The notes under the pieces are model-generated. The model had not been told where the DNA came from. It did no database searches and saw nothing but the letters and a program-made list of their open reading frames with translations. This document shows positions 4,236 to 44,038 of a stretch of 64,000 bases of DNA, in pieces (position 1 is the stretch's first letter; each line of letters opens with the position of its first letter). The DNA is from an uncultured virus (IMG/VR IMGVR_UViG_3300033550_000001) (Duplodnaviria > Heunggongvirae > Uroviricota > Caudoviricetes). Both the position numbers and the translations under genes were made by a program. The DNA lies in IMG/VR virus record IMGVR_UViG_3300033550_000001. The stretch is one strand, 5' to 3'.

Positions 4236-4615
4236 GCGTCCACCTGGAGTGCGACCGCTGCGGGTTCCAGGAACAGACGTCCAGCGTGATGCTGTTCGCC
4301 GGGACCGTGGGCCCCGGCATCCCGACGGCGCGTCCCGAGCTGCCGGACGGCTGGACACGGTCCCGGCTCCCGGCCGAGGACGGTTCGGCGTGGGACCGGG
4401 AGCTGTGCCCCGGCTGCAAGGCGGAACTGCTGCGGTTCATGGCCGGCGCCCCGGTCGTCGACATCCGGTCGGTGTCGGAGCAGTCGGCTGTCTGCCGTGG
4501 GTGCGGGCACCTCGTCCACCAGGGCACGGAGTGCCCGGCACTCACGATGCCGGACGGGCCGGGCCCCGCGCGCACCTGCGGATGCAAGGCGGAGGGAGTG
4601 GGGACCGATGGCTGA
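4232..4615 (+). CDS. Zn-finger-like hypothetical protein
   Basis: GTGA overlap; CDRC, CPGC, CRGC motifs. Confidence 0.7.
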   Translation: MSVHLECDRCGFQEQTSSVMLFAGTVGPGIPTARPELPDGWTRSRLPAEDGSAWDRELCPGCKAELLRFMAGAPVVDIRSVSEQSAVCRGCGHLVHQGTECPALTMPDGPGPARTCGCKAEGVGTDG

Positions 4616-5069
4616 GCGACGCACGCGGCTGGTCGTGGACATCGTCTGGAACGGGCCGGACGCGCCCCGGCCGGACGAGCACTACTACAGCGACGACGAG
4701 CTGGCCCGGGTGTCCACGGACTGGATCGTGGGCGCGGTCGAGGACCACGACGACTGCCCCCGCGTCACCGTGACCGAGGTGGGCGGAGCGTCGGCGGACC
4801 GGGGCCGGGACAGCGGTGAGGCGCTGACGTCCGTGCGCACCGTGCTGAGCCGGGCCGAGACGGCGCTGGGGGAGCTGGGGCCCGAGGGCACCCGGACGGA
4901 GTTCCCGCCGAGGACAGGCGACCAGGCGCAGGACAACTACCCCCTGCGCAAGGCGGGGAGGTTCGAGGACCCCGACGCCCCGTCCATGCGGCAGGCCCTG
5001 CGGGCCGTCGTCGCACTGCTGGACCCTTGGCGGAAGACCGGCCGGACCAAGCGCTCCACCTGTCACTGA
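4608..5069 (+). CDS. Hypothetical protein
   Basis: Overlapping ATG with SD; followed by a terminator. Confidence 0.7.
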   Translation: MAERRTRLVVDIVWNGPDAPRPDEHYYSDDELARVSTDWIVGAVEDHDDCPRVTVTEVGGASADRGRDSGEALTSVRTVLSRAETALGELGPEGTRTEFPPRTGDQAQDNYPLRKAGRFEDPDAPSMRQALRAVVALLDPWRKTGRTKRSTCH

Positions 5070-5083
5070 CCGCCGCTCACCAC

Positions 5084-5123
5084 CGACGAAGCCCCGGAGC
5101 CCTCCCGGCCCGGGGCTTCGTCG
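5084..5123. terminator. Hairpin of the GAAGCCCCGG..CCGGGGCTTC family
   Basis: 14-bp inverted repeat after the operon end. Confidence 0.8.
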
Positions 5124-5195
5124 CGTCTCCGGAACGATCATGGCCCTTCGCCGTCTTAACATCGCCGCGTCCGCCGACCGGGTGAAGGGGTAGCG

Positions 5196-6023
5196 ATGAC
5201 CACGACCGTCGGGACCGAGCGGGTCCCCCTGGAAGACCTCACACCGTTCCCTGGCAACGCCCGGCGCGGCGACGTGGACGCGATCCTCGAATCGCTGCGC
5301 GCGAACGGGCAGTACAAGCCGCTCACCGTTCGCCGGCACGGCGAGACGCTGACGATCCTCGCCGGGAACCACACGTATCTGGCGCTGCTGCGGCACGAGG
5401 AGTCCGACCGCGAGGACTGCCGGGACTGGGAGCTGGCCAACGACCGCCCGTGCCAACTCTGCGTCAACGTGGAGGCGGACGACCCGACAGCCCTCTCCCA
5501 CCTCATCGAATGCGACGACGCCACCGCCACGCGCATCAACCTGGTGGACAACAAGGCGGCCGACGACGGTTCCTACGACGACGAGGCGCTGGCCGCGCTG
5601 CTCGCCTCGCTGGACGGCGGCCCGGTCGGCACCGGCTACACCGACGAGGAAGCCGACTCACTGCTGGCGAGGTACGAGGAGGAAGAGGTCGTCGAGTACA
5701 CCCGCCCGGCAGTCGCCGAGTACAACGACGACCCCGAGGAGCGGAAGGCCCGGGTGGACCGCCTCGGTGGCGAGAACAGCCAGCCGTACGAGTCGCGCGG
5801 TGTGCGGGACATCTTCCTCGCCATGCCCAACGCCGAGGCCGACGAGCTGGGCCGCTGCATCATGGCGCTGCGCGAGCACTTCGGCGCGATGACGCAGAGC
5901 GAGGTCGTGCTGCGGGCGGCCCGGGTGGCCGTCGCGGTCATGGACGGCGCGGACGCGGGACTGACCCTCGCGGACTGCCTGAGCCGGGGGGAAGCCGTCT
6001 ACAACCCCGGGGCCGAGGAGTGA
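5196..6023 (+). CDS. ParB/Srx-like N-terminal domain protein
   Basis: LTPFPGNARRGD, GQYKPL, ILAGNH, DNK motifs. Confidence 0.85.
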   Translation: MTTTVGTERVPLEDLTPFPGNARRGDVDAILESLRANGQYKPLTVRRHGETLTILAGNHTYLALLRHEESDREDCRDWELANDRPCQLCVNVEADDPTALSHLIECDDATATRINLVDNKAADDGSYDDEALAALLASLDGGPVGTGYTDEEADSLLARYEEEEVVEYTRPAVAEYNDDPEERKARVDRLGGENSQPYESRGVRDIFLAMPNAEADELGRCIMALREHFGAMTQSEVVLRAARVAVAVMDGADAGLTLADCLSRGEAVYNPGAEE

Positions 6024-7102
6024 GCGACACACTGACGGCCGGTCTCGACTTCCGGCTACCGCAGTACCGGCGGGAGGTGTTCCTGCGGTTCTACGAGTGG
6101 TCGGTGCGTCACCGCTCGTTCCCTGGGGGAGTGCACTACGCGCTGCCGCACCTTGCCGACGCACTCGACTGGGACACCGAGCAACGATTCTGGGCGGCGT
6201 TCCTCAACGCCAACACGCAGAACCCTGTCACCACGCTGCTGCTCATGCAGGCCGCATCGCGCCCCGGCGACGCGGACGGGGCCGTGGAGTTCTGGCGGGG
6301 GCACTACCGCGAGCTGGAGTGGGACACCGACCGCCGGTACCACAAGGCCCGGTTCGCGGACGCGGTGGACGGGTATCGGCGGCTGACCGGCCCGGGGCCG
6401 GACGCACAGGCCCGGTACTTCCGGCTGCCGCACGAGTGGGGCGCGTGGTGGGACGCCGCCGCCGCGATACCGACCATGGGCCGGCTGTCCACCTGGAGCT
6501 ACCTGGAATACCTGCGCATCCTGGAGTGCGGAGCCCCGGACGCTGACACGCTGCTGCTCACGGACATCCCCGGCTCCCGCAGCCACCGCAACGGCCTCGC
6601 CCTCGTCGCCGGCCGGGACGAGTGGATCGCTGACAAGCAGCTCGGGGACCCCGCGTTCGGCTACACCCCGGACGTGCTCAGCGAACTGGCGTCCGTCGGC
6701 TACGGTTTGCTGGCCGAGGCGCGACGCCGGGTCCCAGGGGACCGCACGGTCGGCTATCTGTCGCTGGAGTCGGCACTGTGCACGTACAAGAGCTGGCACA
6801 AACCGAACCGTCGCTACCCCGGCGTCTACAACGACATGCTGCATGACCGGCTGGTGCGTGCGGAGAACCGGTTCGGCCGGCGGTTCGGCGTCATCTGGGA
6901 CGCCCGCCGAGAGGCGCTGCCCGCCCGGCTGCGGCTGGAGGACAACCCCGGGGACCCCGGCTGCGTGCCGGTCAAACAGAACTGGTACCGGACCACCGGT
7001 CAGGTCATCGGCATGGCGGACGACTGGCCTTGCTTCACCAACGGTTTCGACCGGTTGGTACGGGACGGGCTGCTCGGCCAGAGGGAGCGTGCGTGGATCT
7101 GA
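6020..7102 (+). CDS. Amino acid:DNA transferase (aGPT-Pplase2 family, HhH fold)
   Basis: DTDRRYHK, MGRLSTWSYLEYL, SRSHRNGL, LESALCTYKS..RYPG motifs; operon context. Confidence 0.75.
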   Translation: MSDTLTAGLDFRLPQYRREVFLRFYEWSVRHRSFPGGVHYALPHLADALDWDTEQRFWAAFLNANTQNPVTTLLLMQAASRPGDADGAVEFWRGHYRELEWDTDRRYHKARFADAVDGYRRLTGPGPDAQARYFRLPHEWGAWWDAAAAIPTMGRLSTWSYLEYLRILECGAPDADTLLLTDIPGSRSHRNGLALVAGRDEWIADKQLGDPAFGYTPDVLSELASVGYGLLAEARRRVPGDRTVGYLSLESALCTYKSWHKPNRRYPGVYNDMLHDRLVRAENRFGRRFGVIWDARREALPARLRLEDNPGDPGCVPVKQNWYRTTGQVIGMADDWPCFTNGFDRLVRDGLLGQRERAWI

Positions 7103-7962
7103 ACTCCTGGCTCAGCCCGGTGGAGAACCGGGGCGGCCGTCTCTACAAGCGGGAAGACCTCGCCGCGCTGCCTGTCGGCGTCAACGGCTCCAAGCTGCGC
7201 GCCTGCGAGCACCTGATCGGCCGGGCCGCCCGCGCCGGCGCCAAGCGGGTCATCTCCGCCGCCTCGGTGCTCTCCCCGCAGAGCGCCATGGCCGCCGTCC
7301 TCGCACGGCGCCACGGCCTCGGCTGCACGGTCGTCGTCGGCGGCACCAAACCCACCACAGCCATCCGGCACCCGTCCATCCGCATGGCCGTGGACCACGG
7401 GGCGGGCCTGGAGTTCGCGGCCGTCGACTACAACCCGGCGCTTCAGTCCTACGCGCGCAGGCTCGCCGCCACCGACCCCGCCGCGTACTGGCTCCAGTAC
7501 GGCATCACCACCCCACCCGCCGCCACCCGCGAGGAGCTGCTGGACTTCCACGCGGTCGCCGCCCGGCAGACGGAGAACCTGCCGGACGGGGTGGGGACGC
7601 TGGTGGTGCCGTTCGGGTCCGGCAACACGGCGGCCGGTGTGCTCATGGGCTTGGCCCAGCGATCGTCGGCCGACCGCCCCCGAAAGACGGTGCTGGTGGG
7701 CATCGGCCCGGACCGGAGGGCCTGGCTGGCAGACCGGTTCGCCGCCATGGGTCTGGAACTCCCGGCGTACGAGCACCTGGACCTGCACGGCTCCGGATAC
7801 GCCTCCTACGGCGACAAGATGCCCGGCACCGCCGACGGCATCCGCCTGCACCCCACCTACGAGGGCAAGGTGGTGCGCTACCTGAACGAGAAGCGACCCG
7901 ACTGGTGGACCCGCCGGGACGGCACGACGTGCCTGTGGATCGTGGGAGGACCCATCTCGTGA
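7093..7962 (+). CDS. PLP-dependent enzyme (fold II, ACC deaminase/D-Cys desulfhydrase-like)
   Basis: KREDL..NGSKLR PLP lysine motif, VPFGSGNT, LHPTYEGK. Confidence 0.85.
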   Translation: MDLNSWLSPVENRGGRLYKREDLAALPVGVNGSKLRACEHLIGRAARAGAKRVISAASVLSPQSAMAAVLARRHGLGCTVVVGGTKPTTAIRHPSIRMAVDHGAGLEFAAVDYNPALQSYARRLAATDPAAYWLQYGITTPPAATREELLDFHAVAARQTENLPDGVGTLVVPFGSGNTAAGVLMGLAQRSSADRPRKTVLVGIGPDRRAWLADRFAAMGLELPAYEHLDLHGSGYASYGDKMPGTADGIRLHPTYEGKVVRYLNEKRPDWWTRRDGTTCLWIVGGPIS

Positions 7963-8534
7963 TACGTGGCCTGCTGTACGTCATCGGCCCGCCGGGGGTG
8001 GGCAAGTCCACGCTTGTCCGGGAGCTGCGCACCGGCTGGGACACAGAGGTGGACCGGCACCACGCCGTCCCCCACACCCGTCTCAACCACCCCGCCACCG
8101 GCCGCACCGCCGGACTGGAACTCGGGGTGCCCCGCGAGGACTTCCCCGGCACCGACGCCCTGGCCATGGACATAGGGCCCCGGGCGCTCCAGTTTCTGTC
8201 GGCCAGCTACACGCCCTTCGCCGTGGGGGAGGGCGCGCGGCTGGCCACCCGGCCTTTCCTCGGCGGACTGGCGCAGCAGGGCGTGGCGGTCACGGTGGTG
8301 GAGCTGATGGCGTCACCGGCGCTGCTGGATCAGCGGTGGCGCGAGCGCGGGGCGCGACAGAACCCGTCCTGGCGCAAGGGTGCGGCCACCCGGGCGTCCC
8401 GCCTGGCCGACTGGGCCGCCGGTGCGCCGGGCGTCCGGCTGCGGTGCATCGACGTGGAGCAGTACAGCCCGGCGGAGATGGCGGCCGAGGTGCGCGACGT
8501 CTTCCCGCCGATAACCCCGGAGGTGAACCGTTGA
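7959..8534 (+). CDS. P-loop nucleotide kinase, likely 5-hydroxymethylpyrimidine DNA kinase
   Basis: GPPGVGKST, FPGTDALAM, GEGARL, RGARQNPSW motifs; next to the transferase. Confidence 0.75.
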   Translation: MIRGLLYVIGPPGVGKSTLVRELRTGWDTEVDRHHAVPHTRLNHPATGRTAGLELGVPREDFPGTDALAMDIGPRALQFLSASYTPFAVGEGARLATRPFLGGLAQQGVAVTVVELMASPALLDQRWRERGARQNPSWRKGAATRASRLADWAAGAPGVRLRCIDVEQYSPAEMAAEVRDVFPPITPEVNR

Positions 8535-9433
8535 TCTCTATTCGTCTGCGCTCCCGGATTGGCAAGCAGGAGCTTGAGGAAAAAGCTGGCAAGGTACTCG
8601 GGGACGACGCCTACAACGTGAAGCTGACAGGGCCAACCCGGGTGTTCCTGCCCAACGGGCAACCGCTGTGCGTCTACCTACCCGGCGCGATGAAGGACGT
8701 CGTCACCGAGGAGCAGTACGCGATCCTGCACAGCCTGCGACGGACCACAACAGGGAACCGGGGCCCCGCCTCGGGCTCCAAGGCCGTTCGTGCGGGCGCG
8801 CAGAAACGGCAGTACTTCAAGGCGGTCAGCTCCAGCATCCTCGGGGCGTTCGACCCCGGGGGCACCTTCAGGTTCTGCCGCCTGACGGCCTGGACCGGCA
8901 AGAACCTCCCGGAGTGGGAGGCGCTGCACCCGGCGTTGCAAGCCGTAGCCGGGGCGATGCAGGAACACGTCCCCGAGCGCTACGCGGCGCAGATGGAGGA
9001 GATCGAGCGGACGCACCCGGACTGGGTGGTGCCCGGTACCCCGTTCACGACGGTCACCGTCAACAACACCTACCCAACCGGTGTGCACACCGACAAGGGC
9101 GACCTGGACAAGGGGTTCAGCACGATCTTCGCGCTCCGTCGGGGCACGTACACCGGAGGGACGTTCGTGTTCCCGGAGTTCCGGGTGGGCGTGGACCTTC
9201 AGGACGGCGACCTGATCCTGATGGACGCCCATCAGTGGCACGGCAACACGGCCATCGTCTGCGCCTGCGGTGAACGACGGACGGCCTACTGCGAGGACTG
9301 CGGGGCGGAACGCATCTCGGTCGTCTCGTACATGCGCACCGCGATGACCCGGTGCGGTAGCGAGGCCGAGGAGATCGACCGGGCCCGGGAGTACCGCGAG
9401 CGCACCAAGGGCGTCCTGCGCGAGACCCGTTAA
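8531..9433 (+). CDS. TET/JBP-family 2OG-Fe(II) dioxygenase
   Basis: CRLTAW, TPFTTVTVN, HTDKGD (HxD), distal HGN, RISVVSYMR; TTG start coupled to the upstream stop. Confidence 0.85.
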   Translation: MISIRLRSRIGKQELEEKAGKVLGDDAYNVKLTGPTRVFLPNGQPLCVYLPGAMKDVVTEEQYAILHSLRRTTTGNRGPASGSKAVRAGAQKRQYFKAVSSSILGAFDPGGTFRFCRLTAWTGKNLPEWEALHPALQAVAGAMQEHVPERYAAQMEEIERTHPDWVVPGTPFTTVTVNNTYPTGVHTDKGDLDKGFSTIFALRRGTYTGGTFVFPEFRVGVDLQDGDLILMDAHQWHGNTAIVCACGERRTAYCEDCGAERISVVSYMRTAMTRCGSEAEEIDRAREYRERTKGVLRETR

Positions 9434-9454
9434 TCATTAGGGAGGCTAAGGACT

Positions 9455-10087
9455 ATGGCGAAGGGTGACCCGCCCAGCCACCAGCCGAGCCACCGGGCGA
9501 TGGTGGCGCAGCGGCGCGCACGGGCCATCGAGTTGAAGAACCGGGGCCTGTCCTGGCAGCAGGTTGCCGAGCAGATGTCCCCGCACTACCTGGACGCCGA
9601 CGGCCAGCCGTCGGCCGCCGCCGCCTGCGTGGACGTCTCCCGCGCGCTGAAGCAGGCGAACAAAGAGCTGGCGATGGGGCTGGAGGAGTACCGCGAGGCG
9701 GCGCGGATGCGGCTGGACGGCCTGCGCCGCCAGGTCCACGCGGTCCTCGCCCGGCCGCACTACGTGCTGCACGCGGGGCAGATCGTCCGCGACGAGGACG
9801 GCCAGCCGCTGCGCGACAGCGCCCCCGTCCTCGCGGCCGTGGACCGGCTCATGCGCATCGAGGAGCGACAGGCGAAGATCGACGGCACGGACGCCTCCGA
9901 GAAGCTGACCATCGCGCTGGACCGCCGGGTGGACGAGGAGACCACGGTCGTGGTGGAGGCCATCCTGGCCGGCGCCAACGCCGTGGAGCTGGAGCCGGCG
10001 CAGCGGCAGCGGATGCTGGAGGCGGCCGGCGCGCACCTGCGCGTGGTGGAGGGCGAGGTCGTCGGCGAGAGCGAGGACCCCGGCTGA
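9455..10087 (+). CDS. Probable terminase small subunit (HTH)
   Basis: RRARAIELKNRGLSWQQVA helix-turn-helix and AVDRLMRIEERQAKIDG, typical of actinophage TerS. Confidence 0.65.
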   Translation: MAKGDPPSHQPSHRAMVAQRRARAIELKNRGLSWQQVAEQMSPHYLDADGQPSAAAACVDVSRALKQANKELAMGLEEYREAARMRLDGLRRQVHAVLARPHYVLHAGQIVRDEDGQPLRDSAPVLAAVDRLMRIEERQAKIDGTDASEKLTIALDRRVDEETTVVVEAILAGANAVELEPAQRQRMLEAAGAHLRVVEGEVVGESEDPG

Positions 10088-10152
10088 CCAGCGCCGTAGG
10101 CGAGCGGGGCAACCCGTGGCATCATCCGGGGCCCGACAACCCAAGGAGCATC

Positions 10153-10398
10153 ATGGCCCTGCCCACCGACGGATACGCGCCCACGTCCATCGGCTACATG
10201 ATCGGGACCGACAACAACCTGACCGTGACGGTGTCCGTCAGCGCGAACACCGCGTCCCAGCGCGAGGCGGCGGAGCAGTTCCTGCCGTACCTGGAGACCG
10301 CGCTGACCGAACTCCGCGACAACTACCAGAGCGGCACGCAGCAGACGGTGCTCTACATCGAGCGCACGCACAGCGGCAGCCTGGTCGACGGCATCTGA
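10153..10398 (+). CDS. Hypothetical protein
   Basis: AAGGAG SD; good codon usage. Confidence 0.7.
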   Translation: MALPTDGYAPTSIGYMIGTDNNLTVTVSVSANTASQREAAEQFLPYLETALTELRDNYQSGTQQTVLYIERTHSGSLVDGI

Positions 10399-10586
10399 CT
10401 CGGGTTCGGGAGTAGCCCGCCGCCCTCGTGGGTACGACACAGCAGACGGCGGTCTGACGCCGCCTCAGCTCTGGAACCGCCCGGCGCCGCACCGGGCGGT
10501 TCCCGCGTTTTCCAGGCCGTTCGGCGATTCCCCGGTCCGTGGCTACCCTGCCGCCACGATCAAAGACCACGGAACAAGGGGTGTCC

Positions 10587-11666
10587 ATGCGCGTCCTGCT
10601 CACCGGGGCGGCCGGGTTCGTCGGCTCGCACGTCCTGCGTCACCTGCTCGCCCGCACGGACTGGGAGATCGTCTGCCCGGTGTCCTTCCGGCACAAGGGG
10701 CTGCCCGCCCGTGTCGCCTCCGCCGTGTGCGACACCGACTGGGGCAAGCGCGTGGACATCGTCCACTGGGACATGCGCGCCCCGGCGGACCCGCTGACCC
10801 TGCACATGTTCGGGGACTGCGACGTCATCATGAACGTCGCCAGCGAGTCGCACGTGGACCGGTCCATCGCCCACCCCGTCGACTTCGTGCAGAACAACGT
10901 CGCCCTGATGCTCCACGTGCTGGAGGTCGCGCGGGAGATCCGGCCGCGCCTGTTCCTCCAGATGTCCACCGACGAGGTGTACGGTCCGGCGTACGGCGAC
11001 CACCGGCACACCGAGTGGGAGACGGCCGTGCCGTCCAACCCGTATTCCGCGAGCAAGGCGGCGCAGGAGTCCATCGCCGTCAGCTACTGGCGGACCTATG
11101 ACGTGCCCCTCGTCCTCACCAACACGATGAACATCATCGGCGAGACGCAGGACCCCGAGAAGTTCCTCCCGATGGTCGTCCGGGGCCTGCGGGACGGCTT
11201 GCCGATCACCGTGCACACCGCGCTCGACGGCACGCCCGGTTCACGGTTCTACCTGCACGCGCGCAACCTCGCCGACGCGTGGCTGTACCTGACGCGCCGG
11301 TACACCGAGGCCGAACCGGAGGTGTGGACGCTGGGCGGCGACATGATCCGCATCGCCATGGGCCCGGCGCGCTACGGCGACGGGGTCACGCGGCCCGAGC
11401 GGTTCCACATCGTCGGCGAGCGCGAGGTGGACAACGTCGAACTGGTGCGGATGGTCGGGGAGGTCATGGGGCTGTCCGACGACTACGTCCGGGCCCTGGT
11501 GCAGCCGGTGTCCTTCCACGCCTCGCGGCCGGGGCACGACCTGCGGTACGCCCTGGACGGCTCGCGGATGGCGGCCTTCGGCTGGACGCCTCCGGTGTCC
11601 CTGGAGAAGTCGCTGGAGACCACCGTGCGCTGGTCGCTGGACAACCCCGAGTGGCTGGCCCTGTGA
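10587..11666 (+). CDS. NAD-dependent epimerase/dehydratase (dTDP-glucose 4,6-dehydratase-like)
   Basis: TGAAGFVG, ASESHVDRS, STDEVYG, YSASK, RPGHDLRYALD. Confidence 0.92.
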   Translation: MRVLLTGAAGFVGSHVLRHLLARTDWEIVCPVSFRHKGLPARVASAVCDTDWGKRVDIVHWDMRAPADPLTLHMFGDCDVIMNVASESHVDRSIAHPVDFVQNNVALMLHVLEVAREIRPRLFLQMSTDEVYGPAYGDHRHTEWETAVPSNPYSASKAAQESIAVSYWRTYDVPLVLTNTMNIIGETQDPEKFLPMVVRGLRDGLPITVHTALDGTPGSRFYLHARNLADAWLYLTRRYTEAEPEVWTLGGDMIRIAMGPARYGDGVTRPERFHIVGEREVDNVELVRMVGEVMGLSDDYVRALVQPVSFHASRPGHDLRYALDGSRMAAFGWTPPVSLEKSLETTVRWSLDNPEWLAL

Positions 11667-11705
11667 TGGTTTAGCAAAACCATGGAACGGGGATTTAACT
11701 AAATG
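11666..11705. promoter_or_regulatory. Two degenerate copies of the promoter palindrome
   Basis: ATGGTTTAGCAAAACCAT and GATTTAACTAAATG upstream of the regulator. Confidence 0.55.
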
Positions 11706-11816
11706 AGTGTCCCGGCCAGACCCGGCGGAACGACCCCGGGCCGTCGCCGGTCGACAAGGACCCCGGGCCAGTGGACGTGGCCCGGGGTCCAACCCAATCT
11801 ACGAGAGGGGCGTCCC

Positions 11817-12635
11817 GTGGATGCAGCACTTCAGCCCATCGTCCTGACGGAGCGCCAGCGCCGGCTGCTGTGGCTGCTGTCCGTCGGCCGCCCCCGCGAA
11901 GTAATCGCACGGGAGACGGGCGTCACGTCCGTCGGGGTCAAGAGTTCCTGCAATCGCATTTACCGTCAGCTCGGGGCGTCCACGGCCGCACAGGCCGTAC
12001 GCAACGGTCTGCTGGCCGGGCACATCGGCCCGTACGAGGATTGCGGGACGCTCGCAGCCTACCGCCGCCACATCAAGCGGGACGAGGCGATCTGCGCGGC
12101 GTGCAAACGCGGCAACCGCGAGCGGGCCGAGACCGAGGCCGCGTTGCGCAACCGCCGGGTGACCCTGTCCGAGGCCGAGACACGGCTGTTGCGCGCGTTC
12201 GACGCCGGCCGCACGGTGGCGCAGATCTGCACCCGTTGGGGCGTCAGTCAGAAGGTCGTCAAGGAACTCACCGCGTCCGCCTATGCGGCCCTCGGGGTGA
12301 GCCACCTGCCTCAGACGGTGCGCCGTGAGGCCGCGCTGCGCGAGGCCGCCGCCCGGGGTCTGCTCCGCCTGCGGATGCCGGAACCCCGCGTCGTCCGAAC
12401 CAACCCGGTCACCCTCACGGACACGCAGGTGAGAGTACTCGTAGCGCTAGAGGACGGGGCGTCCCTTTCCGAGGCGGCACGTGAGCTGAAGATGCATCCG
12501 GGGACCCTGTCCACGCGGCTGAGCGAGGCGTACCGGCGCCTGGACGTGGCGTGGATGGACAAGGCCGACCGCCGCCCCGCCGCCCTGCGCAAGGCTCGTG
12601 AGCACGGCCTGCTGCCCGAGCCGGCCACCACCTGA
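11817..12635 (+). CDS. Transcription regulator with three LuxR-like HTH repeats and a Cys/His motif
   Basis: LTERQ.., LSEAE.., LTDTQ.. HTH repeats; CGTLAAYRRH..CAAC. Confidence 0.75.
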   Translation: MDAALQPIVLTERQRRLLWLLSVGRPREVIARETGVTSVGVKSSCNRIYRQLGASTAAQAVRNGLLAGHIGPYEDCGTLAAYRRHIKRDEAICAACKRGNRERAETEAALRNRRVTLSEAETRLLRAFDAGRTVAQICTRWGVSQKVVKELTASAYAALGVSHLPQTVRREAALREAAARGLLRLRMPEPRVVRTNPVTLTDTQVRVLVALEDGASLSEAARELKMHPGTLSTRLSEAYRRLDVAWMDKADRRPAALRKAREHGLLPEPATT

Positions 12636-12655
12636 GCCGTTTGGCCGTTTCGTGA

Positions 12656-13908
<1,253 letters not shown>

Positions 13909-14011
13909 ACTCGCCGCCGTCTGCATTGCACCACCGAGGCCCGCACCGACACCCCCGTCCGGTGCGGGCCTCGTCGTGCTCCGGAAACCGCGCGCCGCCC
14001 GGCAGCCGACA

Positions 14012-16216
14012 ATGGCGGGCATGGCGGACACGAGGCTGAGGAGCCGCGCGGCGGAGAAGCTGCTCATGCACGCGCGGACGCTGACGGAGCCGCGCTGGAC
14101 TCCGCTGCCCCACCAGGTCCCGCCGCCCGGCGACTGGTACGGATGGCTGCTGCTGGCCGGGCGAGGCGCCGGGAAGACCGACGCGTGCGCGCGGTACGTC
14201 CACGAGCACGTCATGGGCCCGCCGTGCCTGCCCGGTCCCATCCCGCACTGGATCGGGATCATCGCGCCCACCCTCGGCGACGCGGCGACGTCCTGCTACG
14301 CCGGCCCGTCCGGCCTGCGGGTGCACAGCCCCGAGGCGAAGATGACGACCCGCCAGGGCGGCACGATCATCAAGTGGCCCAACGGTAGCGAGGCCAAGGT
14401 GTTCGGCGCGCACAGCCCGGAGGACATCGAGCGCCTGCGGTCCGGCGGTAACCGGTGCGTGGCCGAGGGCACCCTGGTGCGCACCGAGTACGGAGAGAGA
14501 CCCATCGAGACCATCCGGCCCGGGGACCGCGTGTGGACGCGCAACGGCCTGCGAGAGGTTCTGGCGGCCTGGGACAACGGCATCAAGGACGTCGTGCGCT
14601 ACGACCACGACGCGGGGTCCACGTGGCTCACGCCGGATCACAAGGTGGCGACGGCCGACGGCTGGAAGCCGGTTTCGCTCGTTCAGCCAACGGAGACAAT
14701 CTTTACATGGGGAAATACGGGGATTCGATACGGTACGACGGCGTCACCTGGCATGCAGGCCCGGACGACTACTACCGGAGCACGCGGCACGGACTGCTGC
14801 ACCGGTACATGTACGCGCGGGAGGTCGGTCCGATCCCCGCAGGCATGCAAGTGCACCACCGCAACCACAACAAGCGGGACAACCGGGTCAGCAACTTCGT
14901 GCTGCTCGCGCCGGGCCAGCATTGGCACGAGCACGGCGAGGAGCGCGGAGAGGACTGGCACCGTAAGGGCGGCCGGGCAACCTGGGACCGCGCGGAATAC
15001 CGGGACTTCACCTGTCAGCGGTGCGGCGCAGTCTTCCGCTCCCGAGGGACGACCGGAGCGCGGTACTGCCCCGGAGCCTGCCGGGAGGCTGTTGCTCCGT
15101 CACGAGCACGGGAGCAGCGGGTGTGCGGCGTGTGCGGCGACGCGTTCGAGTGCCAGCGCCGGAACCCGACCCGCACTTGTTCGCGCCGGTGCACTTCGGT
15201 CCTCGCGTACCAGTCGCGCCGTGCGCGTGTACGACCTGACGATTGAACACGATCACGAGTTCTTCGCGGGCGGCCTGCTCGTCTCCAACTGCCTTGCGTG
15301 GCTGGAGGAGCTGGCCGCGTGGCGCTACCTGGACGACACCTGGGACCAGATGCGGTTCGGCCTACGCGTCGGCCCACGCCCGCACTGGATCGCCTCCACC
15401 ACCCCCAAGCCCCGGGCCCTGATCAAGAAACTCGCGGCCGGCGGTGTGGGCAACGTCGTGCGCACGCACGCGTCCATGTACGACAACCCCCACCTGCCCG
15501 AAGACATCCGGGCCGCGCTGGAGGACGCCTATGCGGGCACGCAGATCGGTCGGCAGGAACTCCACGCGGAGATCATCGACGCCGACGAGAACGCGCTGTG
15601 GAACCGCGCGATGATCGACGACCACCGGGTGCGCCCGAGCGACCTGCCCGACCTCGCACGGATCTCCGTCGGGGTGGACCCGTCGGGCGGCCGGGGCGAA
15701 CAGGGCATCGTCGTCGTCGGCAAGGCGGTGCAGGAGCACGTGCGGGCCGACGGCCGCCCGACGCAGCTCGCGCACGGCTACGTCCTCGCCGACAGGTCGT
15801 GCCACCTCTCCCCGGACGGCTGGGGCCGCCGCGCGGTGCAGGCCGCCGTCGACCACGAGGCGGACGACATCTGCGTGGAGGTCAACTTCGGCGGGGACAT
15901 GGCCGTCAACACGATCCGCGCGGCGGCCGACGCCCTGGGCGTGCGCATCCCCATCAAGGTCGTGCGGGCGACGAGGGGGAAGAAGGTCCGCGCGGAGCCG
16001 GTCAGCGCCCTTTCGGAGCAGGGCCGGTGGCACATGGTGGGGGAGCACCCGGAGCTGGAAGACCAGATGTGCACCTGGTACGACGAGCTGGACTGGAGTC
16101 CGGACCGTCTGGACGCGATGGTCTGGCCGGCCTGGCACCAGCGGATCGTGAAGGCGACCATGACCGGCATTGCCGTGGCCGGCGGTCTGTCCTCGGCGAC
16201 ACGCTCCATCGGGTGA
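14012..16216 (+). CDS. terL: Terminase large subunit containing an intein (alternative start 14021)
   Basis: Walker A AGRGAGKT, Walker B LAWLEE, ASTTPKP, nuclease GVDPS and SPDRLDA. Confidence 0.93.
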   Translation: MAGMADTRLRSRAAEKLLMHARTLTEPRWTPLPHQVPPPGDWYGWLLLAGRGAGKTDACARYVHEHVMGPPCLPGPIPHWIGIIAPTLGDAATSCYAGPSGLRVHSPEAKMTTRQGGTIIKWPNGSEAKVFGAHSPEDIERLRSGGNRCVAEGTLVRTEYGERPIETIRPGDRVWTRNGLREVLAAWDNGIKDVVRYDHDAGSTWLTPDHKVATADGWKPVSLVQPTETIFTWGNTGIRYGTTASPGMQARTTTTGARGTDCCTGTCTRGRSVRSPQACKCTTATTTSGTTGSATSCCSRRASIGTSTARSAERTGTVRAAGQPGTARNTGTSPVSGAAQSSAPEGRPERGTAPEPAGRLLLRHEHGSSGCAACAATRSSASAGTRPALVRAGALRSSRTSRAVRVYDLTIEHDHEFFAGGLLVSNCLAWLEELAAWRYLDDTWDQMRFGLRVGPRPHWIASTTPKPRALIKKLAAGGVGNVVRTHASMYDNPHLPEDIRAALEDAYAGTQIGRQELHAEIIDADENALWNRAMIDDHRVRPSDLPDLARISVGVDPSGGRGEQGIVVVGKAVQEHVRADGRPTQLAHGYVLADRSCHLSPDGWGRRAVQAAVDHEADDICVEVNFGGDMAVNTIRAAADALGVRIPIKVVRATRGKKVRAEPVSALSEQGRWHMVGEHPELEDQMCTWYDELDWSPDRLDAMVWPAWHQRIVKATMTGIAVAGGLSSATRSIG
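14456..15289 (+). mobile_element. Intein (278 aa) in TerL just before Walker B
   Basis: Block A CVAEGTLV, block B LTPDHKV, block F VYDLTIEHDHEFFAGG, block G LLVSN followed by Cys +1. Confidence 0.92.
14707..15246 (+). CDS. HNH homing endonuclease with Zn-finger C-terminus, nested out of frame in the intein
   Basis: GGAG SD at 14692; LHRYMY..GPIPAGMQVHHRNHNKRDNRVSNF..H; CQRC, CPGAC, CGVC, CSRRC. Confidence 0.88.
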   Translation: MGKYGDSIRYDGVTWHAGPDDYYRSTRHGLLHRYMYAREVGPIPAGMQVHHRNHNKRDNRVSNFVLLAPGQHWHEHGEERGEDWHRKGGRATWDRAEYRDFTCQRCGAVFRSRGTTGARYCPGACREAVAPSRAREQRVCGVCGDAFECQRRNPTRTCSRRCTSVLAYQSRRARVRPDD

Positions 16217-19189: not shown

Positions 19190-20281
19190 TCACAGGAACC
19201 GGTCCACCAGGCCCTCGTACACGCGGACGGCCGCCGCCGCGTGCGTCCGCTTCAGCGCCTCGTCGTCGCGGCGGCGGATGTAACGCATCGTCGTGGACAG
19301 GTGGCTGTGGTCGGCGAAGCGCCGGATGTCGTCCGGCGTCGGCTTCCCGTCCTGCGCCTTCTGCCCCTCGTCGTACATGTGGGTGAGCTTGCTCGCGCGC
19401 AGCACGTGCGGGGTGAGGTCCCGGCCGGGCAGGACGCCGGCCGCGCGGCCGAGGCGGTTCAGCAGCCGGTCCACCGCGTGCCGGTCCATCGGCCGGCCCT
19501 CGTCGTCCAGGAACAGCGGCCCGGACTCCTGTCCGTCCCAGCACCGGGCGCCCAGCTCGCACAGCAGCGGCGGCAGGGTGAACACGCGGCCCTTGCCGCC
19601 CTTGCGGGTGAGGTCCAGCTTGCACTCGCCGCCCACCGACCTGATGTCCCGCCGGTCGGCCGCGCAGCACTCGGAGACCCGCCCGGCCAGGGTGTAGATG
19701 AGCACCGGGACGAACGCCTGCCGCGCCGTGGCCGCCTGTTCCACCACGGCCTGGAACTCCTCCACCTCCAGGACCGGCGTCATCGCCGTCTCGTCGTGCT
19801 GGTCGATCACCGGCCGGTCGTACCGGGTGATCGGGTTGACGATGTCCAGCCGGGTGCGGAACTTGGTGTACTCGATGAGCGAGGTCAGCGAGGAGCACAG
19901 CCGGTTGACCCGGCGGGAGCCCAGCTTGATGTCGTCGGTCCACGCGCGCCAGTGCGGGATGACGTCCGGGGTGATCGCCCCGAGGTACCACGGCTCGGTG
20001 CCCACCAACTCCCGGCCGGCGCGGGCCCAGTGCCGGACGTCGTCCGCGTACTCGCGCCGGGTGCCGTCGGAGGTGAACCGCTCGGAGGACAGCCACCCGC
20101 AGACGTGTCCGAACGTCTCGCGCTCGCACAACTGGTGCAGCAGGTCCAGCCGGTGTACGCGCGGCCCGAGCCGGCGCGTCCTCGGGTCACGGGGCGCGAC
20201 GGTGCCCAACCGGTCCCGCAGGGTCATGACGGTGCGCAGCGCCGGGTCGTCGGCGGCGAGCGTTCCGGGTCCCGGGGTCAT
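19190..20281 (-). CDS. Tyrosine recombinase (XerC/D-like resolvase/integrase); start uncertain
   Basis: Catalytic R (GRVSE), K (RKGGK), HxxR (HVLR), H (DHS), Y (TTMRY); N-terminal core-binding domain. Confidence 0.9.
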   Translation of the reverse strand: MTPGPGTLAADDPALRTVMTLRDRLGTVAPRDPRTRRLGPRVHRLDLLHQLCERETFGHVCGWLSSERFTSDGTRREYADDVRHWARAGRELVGTEPWYLGAITPDVIPHWRAWTDDIKLGSRRVNRLCSSLTSLIEYTKFRTRLDIVNPITRYDRPVIDQHDETAMTPVLEVEEFQAVVEQAATARQAFVPVLIYTLAGRVSECCAADRRDIRSVGGECKLDLTRKGGKGRVFTLPPLLCELGARCWDGQESGPLFLDDEGRPMDRHAVDRLLNRLGRAAGVLPGRDLTPHVLRASKLTHMYDEGQKAQDGKPTPDDIRRFADHSHLSTTMRYIRRRDDEALKRTHAAAAVRVYEGLVDRFL

Positions 20282-20398
20282 GATCGTCACGGGCGATGAG
20301 CCTACCGGGGCCCGTCGACCGGCTCCTGCAAAACACACGTTTTGCGCTTCGCCCAGAGCGATTCTGCGGCTGCCGGGTTCCGTGGCATCCTCCGCTCC

Positions 20399-20439
20399 GG
20401 GTTGTCCTTCGGCCCGCGAGTATGATTTAATCAATCCAT
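20399..20439 (+). promoter_or_regulatory. Conserved promoter/palindrome P3
   Basis: TTGTCC-N18-TTTAAT; TATGATTTAATCAATCCAT. Confidence 0.85.
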
Positions 20440-25501: not shown

Positions 25502-27343
25502 ATGCCGTGGTACGACGTATTCCGGGGACGAGGTGTCACCCACCCCTCCCCGCTGCCCGCGCCGCAGCCCGAGGCGCTGACGGCCGCCGCAGCAGAGCCA
25601 CCCGGCCCGGAGACCAAGTTCCTGCGCCGCACGGACCGCTGGCAGGAAGAGGTCTGGCAGTTCCACGAGAGCCTGGGGGAGTTCAACTACGGCGTCTGGT
25701 GGCTCAGCAACATGCTGTCCCGGGTACGCCTGCGCGCCGCCAGGCTCCAGCCGGACAGCGACGAACCGGAGATCGTCACCGGTGGTACGGCCGCTGACCT
25801 GATGATGCGCCTCGGCGGAGGGGTCGCCGGGCAGGCCCAGCTCATGCGCCGCCTGACGGTGCAGCTCTCCCTCCCCGGTGAGGGCTACCTGGTCGGCGAG
25901 CAGGACGGCAAGGTGGAGCGCTGGCAGGTCCGGTCCGTGGACGAGATCCGCGTCCAGTCCGGCAAGTACCAGGTGATGGACGAGGAGTCGGCGACCACCG
26001 GCCAGGACTGGCGGGACCTCGCGCCGGACCACCACGTCGTCCGCGTCTGGCGTCCGCACGACAGGTACTTCCACCTCGCCGACTCCCCGGCCCGCAGCGC
26101 GCGGGACATCATGCGCGAGCTGGAGCTGGTCAACCGGAAGATCACGTCTGAGTACCTGTCCCGCCTGGCGTCGGCCGGCCTCGTCCTGCTGCCGGACGAA
26201 CTGACCTTCCCGGTACGCGAGGAGTTCGCCGACGAGCCCAACCCGCTCATGGCGGAGTGGATCGAGATCAGCGCCACCGCGATCCAGAACCCTGGCACCG
26301 CCTCCGCCGTCGTCCCCATCCCGCTGGTCGGTCCGGCGGACGCCATCGACAAGGTGAAGCACATCGACTTCACCCTGAAGATCGACGAAAAGATCATCGA
26401 GAAGCGGGACAGCGCGATCAAGCGTCTGGCCACCAAGCTGGACATGCCCGCCGAGATCCTGCTGGGCATGGGTGACGTCAACCACTGGGGCGCCTGGCAG
26501 CTCGAAGAGGGCGCGCTGAAGACGCACATCGCCCCGGTGGCGGAACTGATCTGCGACGCCCTCACGCGCGGCTACCTCCAGCCCCGGCTGGAGGCGTCCG
26601 GCGAGGACCCTGCCGCGTGGGTCGTCTGGTACGACATGAGCGAGCTGGCCATGCGCCCGGACCGCAGCGGCAACGCGACGCTGGCATACGACCGCATGGA
26701 GCTGTCGCCCGAGGCGTACCGCCGGGAACTTGGTTTCGGCGAGTCCGACAAGCCGGAAGGCGACGAGCTGCGCAACCTGGCCTTGAAGACCATCATCCGC
26801 ACGCTGCCGTCCGGCGCCGCGTCCGCCCTCGCGCAACTGCTTGGCGAGGACGTCCCGCAGATCGTCCCCGTCTCCCCGCAGGACCCCGGCACGGCCGAGG
26901 CAGTGCAGGAGGGCAACACCCCGCCGCCTGCGGGCGAGCAGACGTCCGGGAGCCCTGCCGACCGCCCGGCCCCGCAGGGCGACCAGCCGCCGCCGACGCA
27001 GGACGAGACCGGGCCCCCGTCGCAGGCGGCGGCAGCGGAGCGGGCGCGGCTCCTCGTCCAGCAGGCGCGCACACAGCACATGCTCCGGGTCGGCGCGGCC
27101 GGCCGGTGGGAACTGCTGCACCCCGCGCTGTGCGGCGAGCACGAGTACTCCTGTCCGTTCACGCACGCGGTCGCCACGGCGGCCCCGTCGGCACGGCCCG
27201 GGAGCAGCGGGACCTACCTGTGCCACCTGGACGCCTTCGGCCGCCTGGTGCTGGACGGCCGCAGCCCCTACGCGGACACCACGGCGATGATCTCTACGTC
27301 CCTGCGGCCGAGGGCGGTGAGCGGTCATGGAGCAGCACGCTGA
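25502..27343 (+). CDS. Portal protein with C-terminal extension
   Basis: SRLASAGL, AIKRLA..LDMPAEILLGMGDVNHW motifs; first gene of the head module. Confidence 0.85.
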   Translation: MPWYDVFRGRGVTHPSPLPAPQPEALTAAAAEPPGPETKFLRRTDRWQEEVWQFHESLGEFNYGVWWLSNMLSRVRLRAARLQPDSDEPEIVTGGTAADLMMRLGGGVAGQAQLMRRLTVQLSLPGEGYLVGEQDGKVERWQVRSVDEIRVQSGKYQVMDEESATTGQDWRDLAPDHHVVRVWRPHDRYFHLADSPARSARDIMRELELVNRKITSEYLSRLASAGLVLLPDELTFPVREEFADEPNPLMAEWIEISATAIQNPGTASAVVPIPLVGPADAIDKVKHIDFTLKIDEKIIEKRDSAIKRLATKLDMPAEILLGMGDVNHWGAWQLEEGALKTHIAPVAELICDALTRGYLQPRLEASGEDPAAWVVWYDMSELAMRPDRSGNATLAYDRMELSPEAYRRELGFGESDKPEGDELRNLALKTIIRTLPSGAASALAQLLGEDVPQIVPVSPQDPGTAEAVQEGNTPPPAGEQTSGSPADRPAPQGDQPPPTQDETGPPSQAAAAERARLLVQQARTQHMLRVGAAGRWELLHPALCGEHEYSCPFTHAVATAAPSARPGSSGTYLCHLDAFGRLVLDGRSPYADTTAMISTSLRPRAVSGHGAAR

Positions 27344-30300: not shown

Positions 30301-30521
30301 GCGGTCACCTGCGCCTCGTCGGCCTGCTCGCCGTGAACGTCCCCGGCTTCCCGGTGCCCAAGCTGAAGACGGCCCTGGCCGCCGGACAGCAGCTCGCCCT
30401 CGTCGCGGCGGGTATCCCGCAGCTCAGCGAGGGACTGACCGAGGACGAGTTGGACCAGTGGGCCTACCGGCGCGTCCTGACCGCGCTGTCCCGCCGGGTC
30501 CACACCACCGAGGGGAGGTGA
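27327..30521 (+). CDS. Fusion of 2H phosphoesterase, MuF-like domain and capsid maturation protease
   Basis: LHLTLFFLG and AHVCAAY (2H); SEILDSRTCGPC..NACRG (MuF); GIETGDGR, GVSVD, ATLVDIPAF, SGDWR (protease region). Confidence 0.75.
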   Translation: MEQHAEVEVNEGGDLLRGQLPPDAVAVVRRQSHPHPPVLTAAADGSHTQGCMIALMPTAEDAERLAVPGGEPADELHLTLFFLGDDGATWTEDQRDTLESRVRNLVAGLPTVQARAFGAAHWNGGGDYPCWVWSVGDDRDAEPAGGSLVEARVLAGTALTMTMDLPEIPEQHSPWAAHVCAAYSDDPALLPELEQRLGPVTFDRIRLSFGDDDRDIPLSGDAVTAAGGPLRREPTDLELSSRADFASVHAEWEAATAGAVQALKSTTAAWRLDLREQIVKHLAADDPELLPDLTLSTLDATATLTGLMEEYAVKAGRACQREAEAQGVTVPDWSLPEDGDGPDVLTAGVGGRRLLTSVARLTSDLAASALVQAAKRKLSGLLRSSAPAETVAAEVDRELATMDDAGVRASVGSAMTAAQNAGRHAVMEAAPPASTYVASEILDSRTCGPCKVIDGRTFTTLDAAVAEYPVMGYRDCTGARYGNACRGFIVAVWQEVRTATTASGEETGMPWHKVEGHSGCPDGKPWAVVKDADGSVSGCHATEDDADDQLAALYAAEGDSTVTSATETAEALGKGEPNPGTKKDKRLKENQSAAGEEAQCPPGMEPDEESGECVPVGEQKAAGQAEALAHGAAADADRVAGKPAAEIGADGETAPWRGPLTVEGIETGDGREFKADALTWADLPLPLRWNKEDSHGGEPRTIAVNVGRIDRIWREDGGLIMGEGVLDLSTDDGRTVHGKIKGQFLRGVSVDVDSIKDADMELVWPADPDADGEGPDPFDMLFASPEKVVFNRGRIRAATLVDIPAFAEAYIALLGEDGAVVAGGEPIGAVRETRVARFRSLTVQAPQRPPAAWFASPALSVPTGITVTPEGRVYGHAALWGTCHIGQEGVCVTPPHEESHPYFMTGNVWCDDGGTTSVGQITVGTGHAPLSYGHRAAADHYDNTGAAVADVAVGNDAHGIWVAGSVRPGTPESRIHELRAAGQVSGDWRRIGGHLRLVGLLAVNVPGFPVPKLKTALAAGQQLALVAAGIPQLSEGLTEDELDQWAYRRVLTALSRRVHTTEGR

Positions 30522-43640: not shown

Positions 43641-44038
43641 GGGAGGCAGCGATGGGGATGGAAGTGCCGCAGGAGCGGGTGGCGGTGGCGAGGGCGTACG
43701 TGTACGCGGGGGAGTGGGTGGCGGACTGCCCGCGCCCCGGGGCCGCGCCCGACCGGGCCGGCTGCGGCAATGCGGAGTTCCTGCTGCGGCCGTCGCGCAT
43801 GGGCGGGCCGAGGGACGCGGAGGTCGGGTTCTTCCTGTGCTCGTACTGCGGGATGCAGGCGCCGGTCTCGTGGCCGGACGACCGGCACGCCATCCTCGCG
43901 GTGCTGGCCCGCAGGCCGGTGCCGAACACGCGGAACTGGTACCCGACGGACCATCCGGTGGCGCTGCGTTTCGGCCTGCCCCACGGGCAGAGCGTGCGGG
44001 ATCTGGAGGCGGAGGGTGAGGCGCACGGTGTGCGCTGA
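43637..44038 (+). CDS. Hypothetical Cys-containing protein (alternative start 43652)
   Basis: ATGA overlap; WVADCP, CSYC, TRNW. Confidence 0.65.
   Translation: MREAAMGMEVPQERVAVARAYVYAGEWVADCPRPGAAPDRAGCGNAEFLLRPSRMGGPRDAEVGFFLCSYCGMQAPVSWPDDRHAILAVLARRPVPNTRNWYPTDHPVALRFGLPHGQSVRDLEAEGEAHGVR

Follow-up and report, generated by a model that had tools for sequence, protein, structure and literature searches.

The DNA analysed here is a window of 64,000 nucleotides from an uncultured tailed virus (IMG/VR record IMGVR_UViG_3300033550_000001), and the five coupled genes at positions 5196-9433 of its plus strand probably form a self-contained operon for post-replicative thymine hypermodification in a temperate actinophage. 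In order, the genes encode a ParB-like protein, an amino acid:DNA transferase (AADT, formerly aGPT-Pplase2), a fold-type-II pyridoxal phosphate (PLP) enzyme, a P-loop kinase and a TET/JBP dioxygenase. A four-step pathway acting on thymine appears highly probable for this set. The computed results concern gene structure and synteny, protein families and folds, catalytic residues, and the lack of a gene for a deoxyuridine monophosphate (dUMP) hydroxymethylase. We infer from them each enzymatic step, thymine as the substrate, the need for ParB, and which amino acid and final base are involved.

The five genes, all on the plus strand, fill the interval exactly, with successive overlaps of 4, 10, 4 and 4 nucleotides read directly from the sequence; the initial annotation had described five overlapping or coupled genes. 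The ParB-like gene (5196-6023, 275 residues) starts with ATG, the AADT gene (6020-7102, 360 residues) with the GTG of a GTGA overlap, the PLP enzyme gene (7093-7962, 289 residues) with a GTG inside the 10-nucleotide overlap, the kinase gene (7959-8534, 191 residues) with the GTG of another GTGA, and the dioxygenase gene (8531-9433, 300 residues) with the TTG of a TTGA. These start codons agree with the N-termini of the homologues in related loci. Four of the five products exceed the curated Pfam cut-offs in a hidden Markov model check, which bears out the TET/JBP, kinase, AADT and PLP assignments made previously; the fifth gene, which that inventory had left unnamed, encodes the ParB-like partner, a protein of PHROG 723 with a ParB fold and no Pfam match. 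The arrangement is not a chance juxtaposition, since all five genes occur together in at least 17 of 64 related IMG/VR loci, a lower bound, as are all the tblastn tallies over these loci, because many of them are truncated. A scan of positions 4400-13000 for promoter and terminator consensus sequences gave no promoter and one minus-strand terminator-like site, not more than in shuffled sequences, the consensus being uninformative for a high-GC actinophage. The next gene begins at 9455, 21 nucleotides past the dioxygenase stop codon and behind a GGGAGG site.

The product of the last gene matches Tet_JBP (PF12851) with 64.6 bits against a cut-off of 34.9 (E 8.2e-18). In an alignment of 40 sequences, consisting of the window protein, 33 proteins from 67 related loci chosen for completeness and spread, and six from the 50 loci of a motif scan, residues H186, D188, H234, H237, R261 and C275 are invariant in all 40. 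The HxD...H iron triad and the 2-oxoglutarate arginine (R261) would be present according to this pattern, with either H234 or H237 as the distal iron ligand. The AlphaFold2 model (predicted local distance difference test score, pLDDT, 92.1; predicted template modelling score 0.89) has NgTET1 (PDB code: 4lt5) as its best Foldseek match (E 9.5e-13), together with CcTet, TET2 and CMD1, indicating a double-stranded beta-helix of the TET type. A sequence search of the PDB with the same protein returned only noise (best E 0.46). Between the distal histidine and the 2-oxoglutarate arginine lies an insert with four cysteines, C244, C246, C257 and C260 (CxC-x10-CxxC), modelled at a pLDDT of about 93, which may be a zinc knuckle. 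The insert is found in most of the aligned high-GC proteins (L034, L046 and L126 are the exceptions) and in none of the 13 lower-GC members, including those that resemble 5mYOX176.

This last enzyme provides an experimental point of reference. Thymine dioxygenases of phages have been shown experimentally by O'Toole 2026 (PNAS; PMC13229309), where one subclass needs a co-encoded ParB homologue and is described as "consistently linked" with GATases, P-loop kinases and AADTs, and where 5mYOX176, a ParB-dependent enzyme acting on thymine, was reconstituted in vitro. The contig named for it there, IMGVR_UViG_3300025070_001026, is not among the 50 loci of the motif scan, and three of these loci (L074, L100 and L111) each hold a 303-residue open reading frame (ORF) with the first 40 and the last 30 residues of 5mYOX176. 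The L111 ORF, identical by eye to the printed sequence over the aligned part, was taken as a stand-in. The window dioxygenase is collinear with it over the full length, with 34% identity over 302 columns (E 1e-59), and C275 aligns with C280, the "last conserved residue" of PMC13229309, which precedes the C-terminal extension. On this pairwise kinship, the window enzyme is predicted to be a ParB-dependent thymine dioxygenase of the clade C1 type. In the protein database, 1,419 relatives are found at E<=1e-10 among 2,852 candidates, and the dioxygenases of the 64 related IMG/VR loci are 46-100% identical; no cultured actinophage is among the 13 records that the dioxygenase matched by tblastn at E<=1e-5.

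The ParB-like protein, encoded by the first gene of the operon and three genes upstream of the dioxygenase gene, belongs to PHROG 723 ("ParB-like partition protein", 8e-40) and has no Pfam match at E<=0.05. A sequence search of the PDB gives Spo0J (PDB code: 1vz0) at E 0.02. In its AlphaFold2 model (pLDDT 82.2), a confident N-terminal domain of the ParB/Srx nucleotide-binding type is followed by two helices (129-160), a low-confidence linker of about 50 residues (161-211) and a three-helix C-terminal domain (212-269), and the best Foldseek matches are the ParB proteins of M. xanthus (PDB code: 7bnk, 8e-7), B. subtilis (PDB code: 6sdk) and C. crescentus (PDB code: 7bm8). This domain plan is the one published for ParB176, the partner of 5mYOX176, with the same closest structures (M. 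xanthus and C. crescentus ParB). In an alignment of 29 sequences, the window protein and 28 homologues including the ParB of L111, residues N21, S33, G57, N58, D118 and N119 never vary. Of the positions mutated in ParB176 (N14, R16, S29 and R56; PMC13229309), the first three are kept in the window protein as N21, R23 and S33. From the predicted secondary structure, no canonical DNA-binding domain is apparent. By analogy with ParB176, the protein is predicted to act as an activator or partner of the dioxygenase.

The kinase matches Ploopntkinase3 (PF18751) with 88.9 bits against a cut-off of 27 (4e-25) and carries the Walker A motif GPPGVGKS. It is 38% identical (3e-24) to gp4 of mycobacteriophage Prince, itself a PF18751 member at 1e-72. 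PF18751 serves as the kinase marker for such neighbourhoods in the supporting information of PMC13229309, and a kinase match accompanies the dioxygenase in at least 53 of the 64 loci by tblastn. From this context, the protein is predicted to be a 5-hydroxymethyl-deoxyuridine (5-hmdU) DNA kinase, an assignment that is the weakest link of the pathway.

The two remaining enzymes point to the chemistry of Salmonella phage ViI. The AADT exceeds the cut-off of the ADDT family (PF18724; 42.3 bits against 26.2, 9.6e-11) and belongs to PHROG 3271 (1.7e-77); nothing was found at E<=1 in a sequence search of the PDB. It is 55-57% identical to mycobacteriophage gp3 and 26% identical to ViI gp247 (9e-15), with E 0.03 to M6 gp51, the subclade placement being one by pairwise BLAST. 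The PLP enzyme belongs to the PALP family (PF00291; 50.7 bits against 35, 2.2e-13) and is 30% identical over 332 columns to ViI gp226 (9e-44); compared with both reference enzymes, it gives 5e-43 to gp226 and 3e-6 to M6 gp52. Its K34, invariant in all eight aligned sequences, stands opposite K92 of the ViI enzyme and K36 of M6 gp52. The genes of gp226 and gp247 were located in the Vi01 record by the notes orf00226 and orf00247. According to Lee 2021 (Nucleic Acids Research; PMC8989533), ViI gp247 joins serine to 5-phosphomethyl-deoxyuridine through the side-chain oxygen, and gp226, with K92 as the Schiff-base lysine, decarboxylates the resulting O-serinyl-thymidine to 5-(2-aminoethoxy)methyl-deoxyuridine (5-NeOmdU). 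M6 gp51, on the other hand, attaches glycine through its amine, and a radical S-adenosylmethionine (SAM) isomerisation is required before the PLP enzyme gp52 can act (PMC8989533).

A PLP enzyme needs a free amine and the window cassette has no radical-SAM gene, so a free-amine adduct such as O-serinyl-thymidine is to be expected. Moreover, similarity to gp51 (1e-8 to 1e-15), with no match to gp247, is seen both for the AADTs that stand beside a flavin adenine dinucleotide (FAD) oxidoreductase in related loci and for the AADT that neighbours 5mYOX176. AADT subclade and tailoring enzyme thus change together, just as they do in the systems that have been characterised: a gp247-like AADT is accompanied by a gp226-like PLP enzyme and a gp51-like AADT by an FAD enzyme. 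Because the window AADT is of the gp247-like subclade and paired with a gp226-like enzyme, the amino acid transferred is most likely serine, linked via its side-chain oxygen. The end product has about an even chance of being the known base 5-NeOmdU, which is favoured over a new base because AADT and PLP enzyme are of the ViI gp247 and gp226 types; the earlier suggestion that the product base may be new was set aside on the same ground.

The pathway would run as follows. First, the dioxygenase, together with the co-translated ParB-like protein, would convert thymine in the phage DNA into 5-hydroxymethyluracil (5hmU) by hydroxylating its methyl group. Second, the PF18751 kinase would phosphorylate the hydroxyl of this hydroxymethyl group. 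Third, the gp247-like AADT would exchange the phosphate for a free amino acid, most likely serine through the side-chain oxygen, and fourth, the gp226-like PLP enzyme would use the free alpha-amine to decarboxylate the adduct, yielding 5-NeOmdU, the base of ViI. The nucleotide pool would be left untouched. The order of oxidation in DNA, phosphorylation, amino acid transfer and PLP-dependent trimming had been proposed in the initial annotation, and it stands as the best reading of the families and of the lack of a thymidylate synthase-type gene.

That lack extends beyond the window, for which alone it had been claimed. PF00303, the family of thymidylate synthase and dUMP hydroxymethylase, is absent from the whole 76,514-base source record, which is 93% complete, the missing 7% leaving a small gap; the same search was positive in 10 of 14 control genomes. 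It is likewise absent from the four related near-complete records, and the M6 hydroxymethylase gp58 has no tblastn match in the window's own genome or in any of the 64 related loci.

Several findings weigh against the pathway as drawn here. The kinase lies outside PF18748 (HMUDK_HMUD1; M6 gp54) and PF18747 (HMUD2; ViI gp243), the families of the tested 5-hmdU kinases, and in BLASTP comparisons neither M6 gp54 (E 0.33) nor the kinase-like protein of L111 shows usable similarity. The ParB-like protein has T60 at the position of R56 of ParB176, and in comparison with the ParB beside 5mYOX176 in L111 it gives a BLASTP E of 0.43 and 17% identity in the multiple alignment. The closest solved sequences to the PLP enzyme are D-cysteine desulfhydrase (PDB code: 4d8t, 1e-9) and a homologue of 1-aminocyclopropane-1-carboxylate (ACC) deaminase (PDB code: 1j0a), with no decarboxylase among them, and since the identities to the ViI enzymes are only 26-30%, amino acid specificity and the type of PLP reaction could differ. 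In E. coli, the tested phage thymine dioxygenases oxidised at most 25-35% of thymines (PMC13229309). Finally, the genome encodes a C5-cytosine DNA methyltransferase (61187-62527, minus strand; PF00145 at 4.4e-13, PHROG 116), and 5mYOX176 can oxidise 5-methylcytosine (5mC) too (PMC13229309).

The last two points bear on the substrate, which had been given earlier as thymine or 5mC. If 5mC made by the phage methyltransferase were oxidised by the dioxygenase, the kinase, AADT and PLP enzyme would build a hypermodified cytosine. The activity of 5mYOX176 on 5mC was observed in vitro, phage TET enzymes that oxidise 5mC exist (Burke 2021, PMC8256090), and two of the four related near-complete records also carry a C5-methyltransferase. 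Nonetheless, the methyltransferase gene lies 52 kb from the dioxygenase gene and on the opposite strand, none of the 64 related loci has one within 6 kb of the dioxygenase, and the other two near-complete records have none; one of these, L023, is 100% complete with terminal repeats and has the same types of AADT, PLP enzyme, kinase and dioxygenase. This distribution favours thymine as the substrate. Also, all the characterised AADT, kinase and PLP chemistry takes place on 5-hmdU (PMC8989533), and within the classes of PMC13229309 the dioxygenase groups with the ParB-associated thymine dioxygenase rather than with the methyltransferase-linked enzymes. The cytosine route is highly improbable, and of the two substrates named before, thymine is retained and 5mC disfavoured, even though the methyltransferase exists.

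The divergence from the ViI enzymes raises the alternative of a different product by the same logic, in which the AADT would transfer not serine but, for example, a diamino acid linked by its side chain, cysteine, threonine or homoserine, or the PLP enzyme would catalyse elimination or deamination, with an undescribed thymine derivative as the result. The low identities of AADT and PLP enzyme to gp247 and gp226, the absence from the window PLP enzyme of a gp226 insert of about 55 residues, its nearest solved sequences and a kinase family unlike those of ViI and M6 are all in keeping with such an outcome, as are the free swaps of tailoring genes among relatives (FAD oxidoreductase, amidoligase with phosphatase, radical SAM and glycosyltransferase) and the extra genes in some of them. 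However, the pairing of AADT subclade and tailoring enzyme is exactly that of the characterised systems, and the Schiff-base lysine is conserved together with the overall alignment to gp226, a proven decarboxylase. A new derivative is accordingly considered somewhat unlikely, and serine-derived 5-NeOmdU is kept as the preferred product.

The variation among relatives is extensive. By tblastn over the 64 loci, the kinase is found in at least 53, an AADT of any kind in at least 48 and the ParB-like gene in at least 40, followed by the PLP enzyme (at least 21), the FAD oxidoreductase (at least 12), a TET-associated glycosyltransferase (at least nine), amidoligase-like and low-molecular-weight phosphatase genes (at least four each) and radical SAM/SPASM genes (at least three). 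The alternative tailoring modules were confirmed by Pfam in 27 sampled ORFs. In L010, L016, L018-L020, L030, L035 and L041 from IMG/VR, and in L125, the place between the ParB and kinase genes is taken by an M6 gp51-like AADT with an FAD oxidoreductase instead of the gp247-like AADT with its PLP enzyme, and this among close relatives, with dioxygenases up to 86% identical. By analogy with PaMx11, the exchange predicts a different base of the 5-aminomethyl-deoxyuridine type. Another arrangement, ParB, AADT, amidoligase-like protein, low-molecular-weight phosphatase, FAD oxidoreductase, kinase and dioxygenase, is observed in L031, L032, L038 and L039; the phosphatase and the amidoligase have no step in the pathways as set out in PMC8989533 and PMC13229309. 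Extra ORFs interrupt cassettes that are otherwise identical, between the PLP enzyme and kinase genes in L021-L024 and between the AADT and PLP enzyme genes in L009 and L011-L014; one of these ORFs starts MTYRPQPGDIGLT... (171-196 residues). A glycosyltransferase-like gene (PHROG 7162) in L006 (5462-6781) and two epimerase/dehydratase genes of the window may act on DNA, on the host envelope or on proteins of the virion. In Mycobacterium phage AlanGrant (L072, 1-3152), a 479-residue protein fuses a ParB-like N-terminus to an N6/N4-methylase-like domain (PF01555, E 3e-5, below the cut-off), and its gene is followed by those of a PLP enzyme 47% identical to that of the window and of a kinase; the annotation has neither AADT nor TET and the cassette is partial.

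A further alternative concerns the extent of the modification rather than its chemistry. Here, 5hmU or a derivative would be placed only at sites chosen by the ParB-TET pair, to serve in regulation or packaging, or the later enzymes would have no activity, and no bulk protection against restriction would result. The NTR preference and limited conversion of 5mYOX176 with its ParB, for which the authors raise an epigenetic-like role (PMC13229309), are consistent with sparse marks, as is the position of the operon, which adjoins packaging genes not only in the window but also in Prince, AlanGrant, L111 and HTVC112P. Five coupled and conserved genes with intact catalytic residues point instead to a complete pathway, and the same downstream enzymes modify "up to half" of the thymines in ViI and M6 (PMC8989533), which makes the sparse-mark alternative improbable. 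A related proposal joins both deviations: an undescribed thymine derivative at selected sites, with the ParB-like protein confining oxidation to DNA about to be packaged. This is doubtful, although it would explain why such cassettes adjoin terminase genes, and if true the modification would be a self-targeting, epigenetic-like mark of a temperate phage and not a bulk anti-restriction coat.

In comparison with known systems, the full thymine pathway preferred here comes close to that of ViI (Lee 2018; Lee 2021), with which the window shares the AADT subclade, the PLP enzyme type with its aligned lysine, and the order of the chemistry after 5-hmdU. The differences lie upstream and in the genome. 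ViI obtains 5-hmdU by a dUMP hydroxymethylase through the nucleotide pool (PMC8989533), whereas the window has a TET/JBP enzyme with a ParB partner and no hydroxymethylase. Its kinase is of PF18751, as opposed to the PF18747 and PF18748 kinases of ViI and M6 (gp67 and gp243 in ViI). Also, the ViI genes are scattered over a lytic genome of 157 kb, whereas those of the window form one coupled operon in a temperate phage of 72% G+C. The Pseudomonas phages M6 and PaMx11 follow the shared scheme of kinase, AADT and tailoring enzyme on 5-hmdU DNA, in their case with a glycine:DNA transferase and then either a radical-SAM isomerase and PLP decarboxylase or a flavin lyase. Compared with M6, the window AADT is not detectably gp51-like, and the window has neither a radical-SAM enzyme nor a dUMP hydroxymethylase.

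The 5mYOX176/ParB176 system resembles the window in its nearby ParB-like gene, in the collinear dioxygenase including the C-terminal extension, and in the ParB domain plan; an AADT, a kinase-like gene and a terminase gene are also present in the L111 neighbourhood. The gene order differs, being ParB, TET, AADT, a gene of unknown function and the kinase-like gene in L111, and ParB, AADT, PLP enzyme, kinase and TET in the window. Moreover, the L111 AADT is M6 gp51-like (1e-14) and there is no PLP enzyme, in contrast to the gp247-like AADT and PLP enzyme of the window; the four-cysteine insert of the window dioxygenase is missing from its marine relatives, and the two ParB proteins can barely be aligned.

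Among cultured actinophages, Prince has homologues of the ParB-like protein (gp1, 31%, 1e-27), the dioxygenase (27%), the AADT (57%, the gene being 68% identical at the DNA level) and the kinase (38%). Its left end is annotated with a ParB-like protein, a "thymidine hydroxylase", a "DNA glycosylase" (the AADT homologue), an "adenylate kinase" and a terminase. Prince differs in having no PLP enzyme, in the dioxygenase gene standing second, and in a dioxygenase that, at 26.1 bits, does not reach the Pfam cut-off of 34.9. The annotation of Gordonia phage Wooper lists a "Tet-like J-binding protein", an "aGPT-Pplase2 domain protein" and a "DNA kinase", the Gordonia AADT being of the other subclade. 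Literature searches returned no report on which modified base an actinophage with a cassette of this kind contains. Base J of kinetoplastids is finished by a glucosyltransferase, and its synthesis involves neither a ParB partner nor steps by a kinase, an AADT or a PLP enzyme. The likeness to the window lies in the first step, the hydroxylation of thymine by a TET/JBP enzyme, in that case JBP1/2 (PMC13229309).

The mechanism is not proposed here for the first time. Systems of TET/JBP, kinase and aGPT-Pplase proteins were reportedly first predicted by Iyer et al. in 2013. Contigs without a dUMP hydroxymethylase, in which TET_JBP genes stand beside thymidine-hypermodification genes, are described in Lee 2021 (PMC8989533), where the link between them is inferred, and part of the mechanism, oxidation and the ParB requirement, is demonstrated in O'Toole 2026 (PMC13229309), which in its account stops at 5hmU and terms the enzymes "priming". 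What appears particular to the present case is that a ParB-dependent-type dioxygenase, a kinase of PF18751, an AADT resembling gp247 and a PLP enzyme resembling gp226 are united in one coupled five-gene operon, that this operon resides in a temperate phage of high G+C content, and that the dioxygenase has the four-cysteine insert.

With respect to its setting, the operon belongs to an element best read as a temperate actinophage with a Streptomyces-like host. The source record is a linear IMG/VR virus sequence with a CheckV completeness of 93%, and the G+C content of the window is about 72% throughout. Relatives of the dioxygenase occur in Streptomyces africanus, S. hazeniae and Actinomadura rayongensis, and one protein cluster is named after Streptomyces sp. 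UC1A3. The S. hazeniae relative lies within a 909-kb contig and that of S. africanus on a separate contig of 92.7 kb. A temperate lifestyle, as suggested previously, is supported by the tyrosine integrase gene (19190-20434, minus strand) and by the relative inside the 909-kb Streptomyces contig. The capsid protein is only about 34% identical to that of any cultured phage.

The gene content is that of a tailed phage, according to genome-wide PHROG and Pfam scans of ORFs picked by G+C content at third codon positions (GC3). These give a family-A DNA polymerase (62-2011), portal, capsid, tail and tape-measure genes, an endolysin, a lysin-like protein, a holin, a glycosyltransferase, a beta-clamp and a LuxR-type regulator; a tRNA-Glu is present as well. 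The gene behind the operon (9455-10087, plus strand; PHROG 645 at 5e-14) keeps its position in many relatives and encodes a helix-turn-helix protein that is possibly the small terminase subunit. It had been called the probable small subunit, directly downstream of the operon, and the adjacency holds, but the identity is weak, as its faint tblastn matches (E 3e-5 to 5e-4) are to Streptomyces phage genes labelled terminase small subunit, RNase E or helix-turn-helix. Next comes an NAD-dependent epimerase/dehydratase (10539-11666, plus strand), a homologue of which is found 1-4 kb downstream of the dioxygenase in 16 of the 64 related loci; a second such gene is located at 48201-49289 (plus strand). 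The large terminase ORF (13769-16216, plus strand, 815 residues; PF03237, PF17289, PF13403 and PHROG 2) has a Hint_2 domain at residues 230-264, before the terminase N and C domains, which is probably an intein, and the annotation of the AlanGrant terminase likewise mentions an intein.

Further along, a 1064-residue protein (27327-30521, plus strand) has an N-terminal segment resembling PHROG 2659 ("RNA ligase") and a C-terminal MuF/portal-associated region. The window differs from the record by one base, a T in place of G at position 44036, which creates the TGA that ends a mechanical ORF (41564-44038); this ORF overlaps a GC3-supported gene (40623-43640) and its frame is probably non-coding. 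A ParA-like ATPase gene (54759-55424, plus strand) is coupled to an ORF without a family match (55421-56236, plus strand); the two possibly form a partition pair and, taken with the integrase, suggest that the element could be maintained in more than one way. The ParB-like gene of the operon was considered as the partition mate of the ParA-like gene and rejected, being coupled to the AADT gene 49 kb away and syntenic with TET genes in at least 40 of the 64 loci. A second ParB-superfamily protein of the genome is a small GmrSD_N (DUF262, ParB-fold) protein without the nuclease half (57616-58212, minus strand), encoded near the C5-methyltransferase.

For a specialist, an operon of this kind is useful and not surprising. 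As presented in Lee 2021 and O'Toole 2026, no TET-started pathway is taken from oxidation to the final base, and the entire route could conveniently be rebuilt in E. coli from a compact operon of five genes with clear ViI homologues. This would bear on whether PF18751 proteins are 5-hmdU DNA kinases, on the need for the ParB-like protein, and on whether the ViI base can be made without a change to the nucleotide pool, a property relevant to enzymatic tools for DNA labelling. Among the relatives compared here, the tailoring modules are exchanged around a constant core of ParB-like protein, kinase and TET/JBP dioxygenase.

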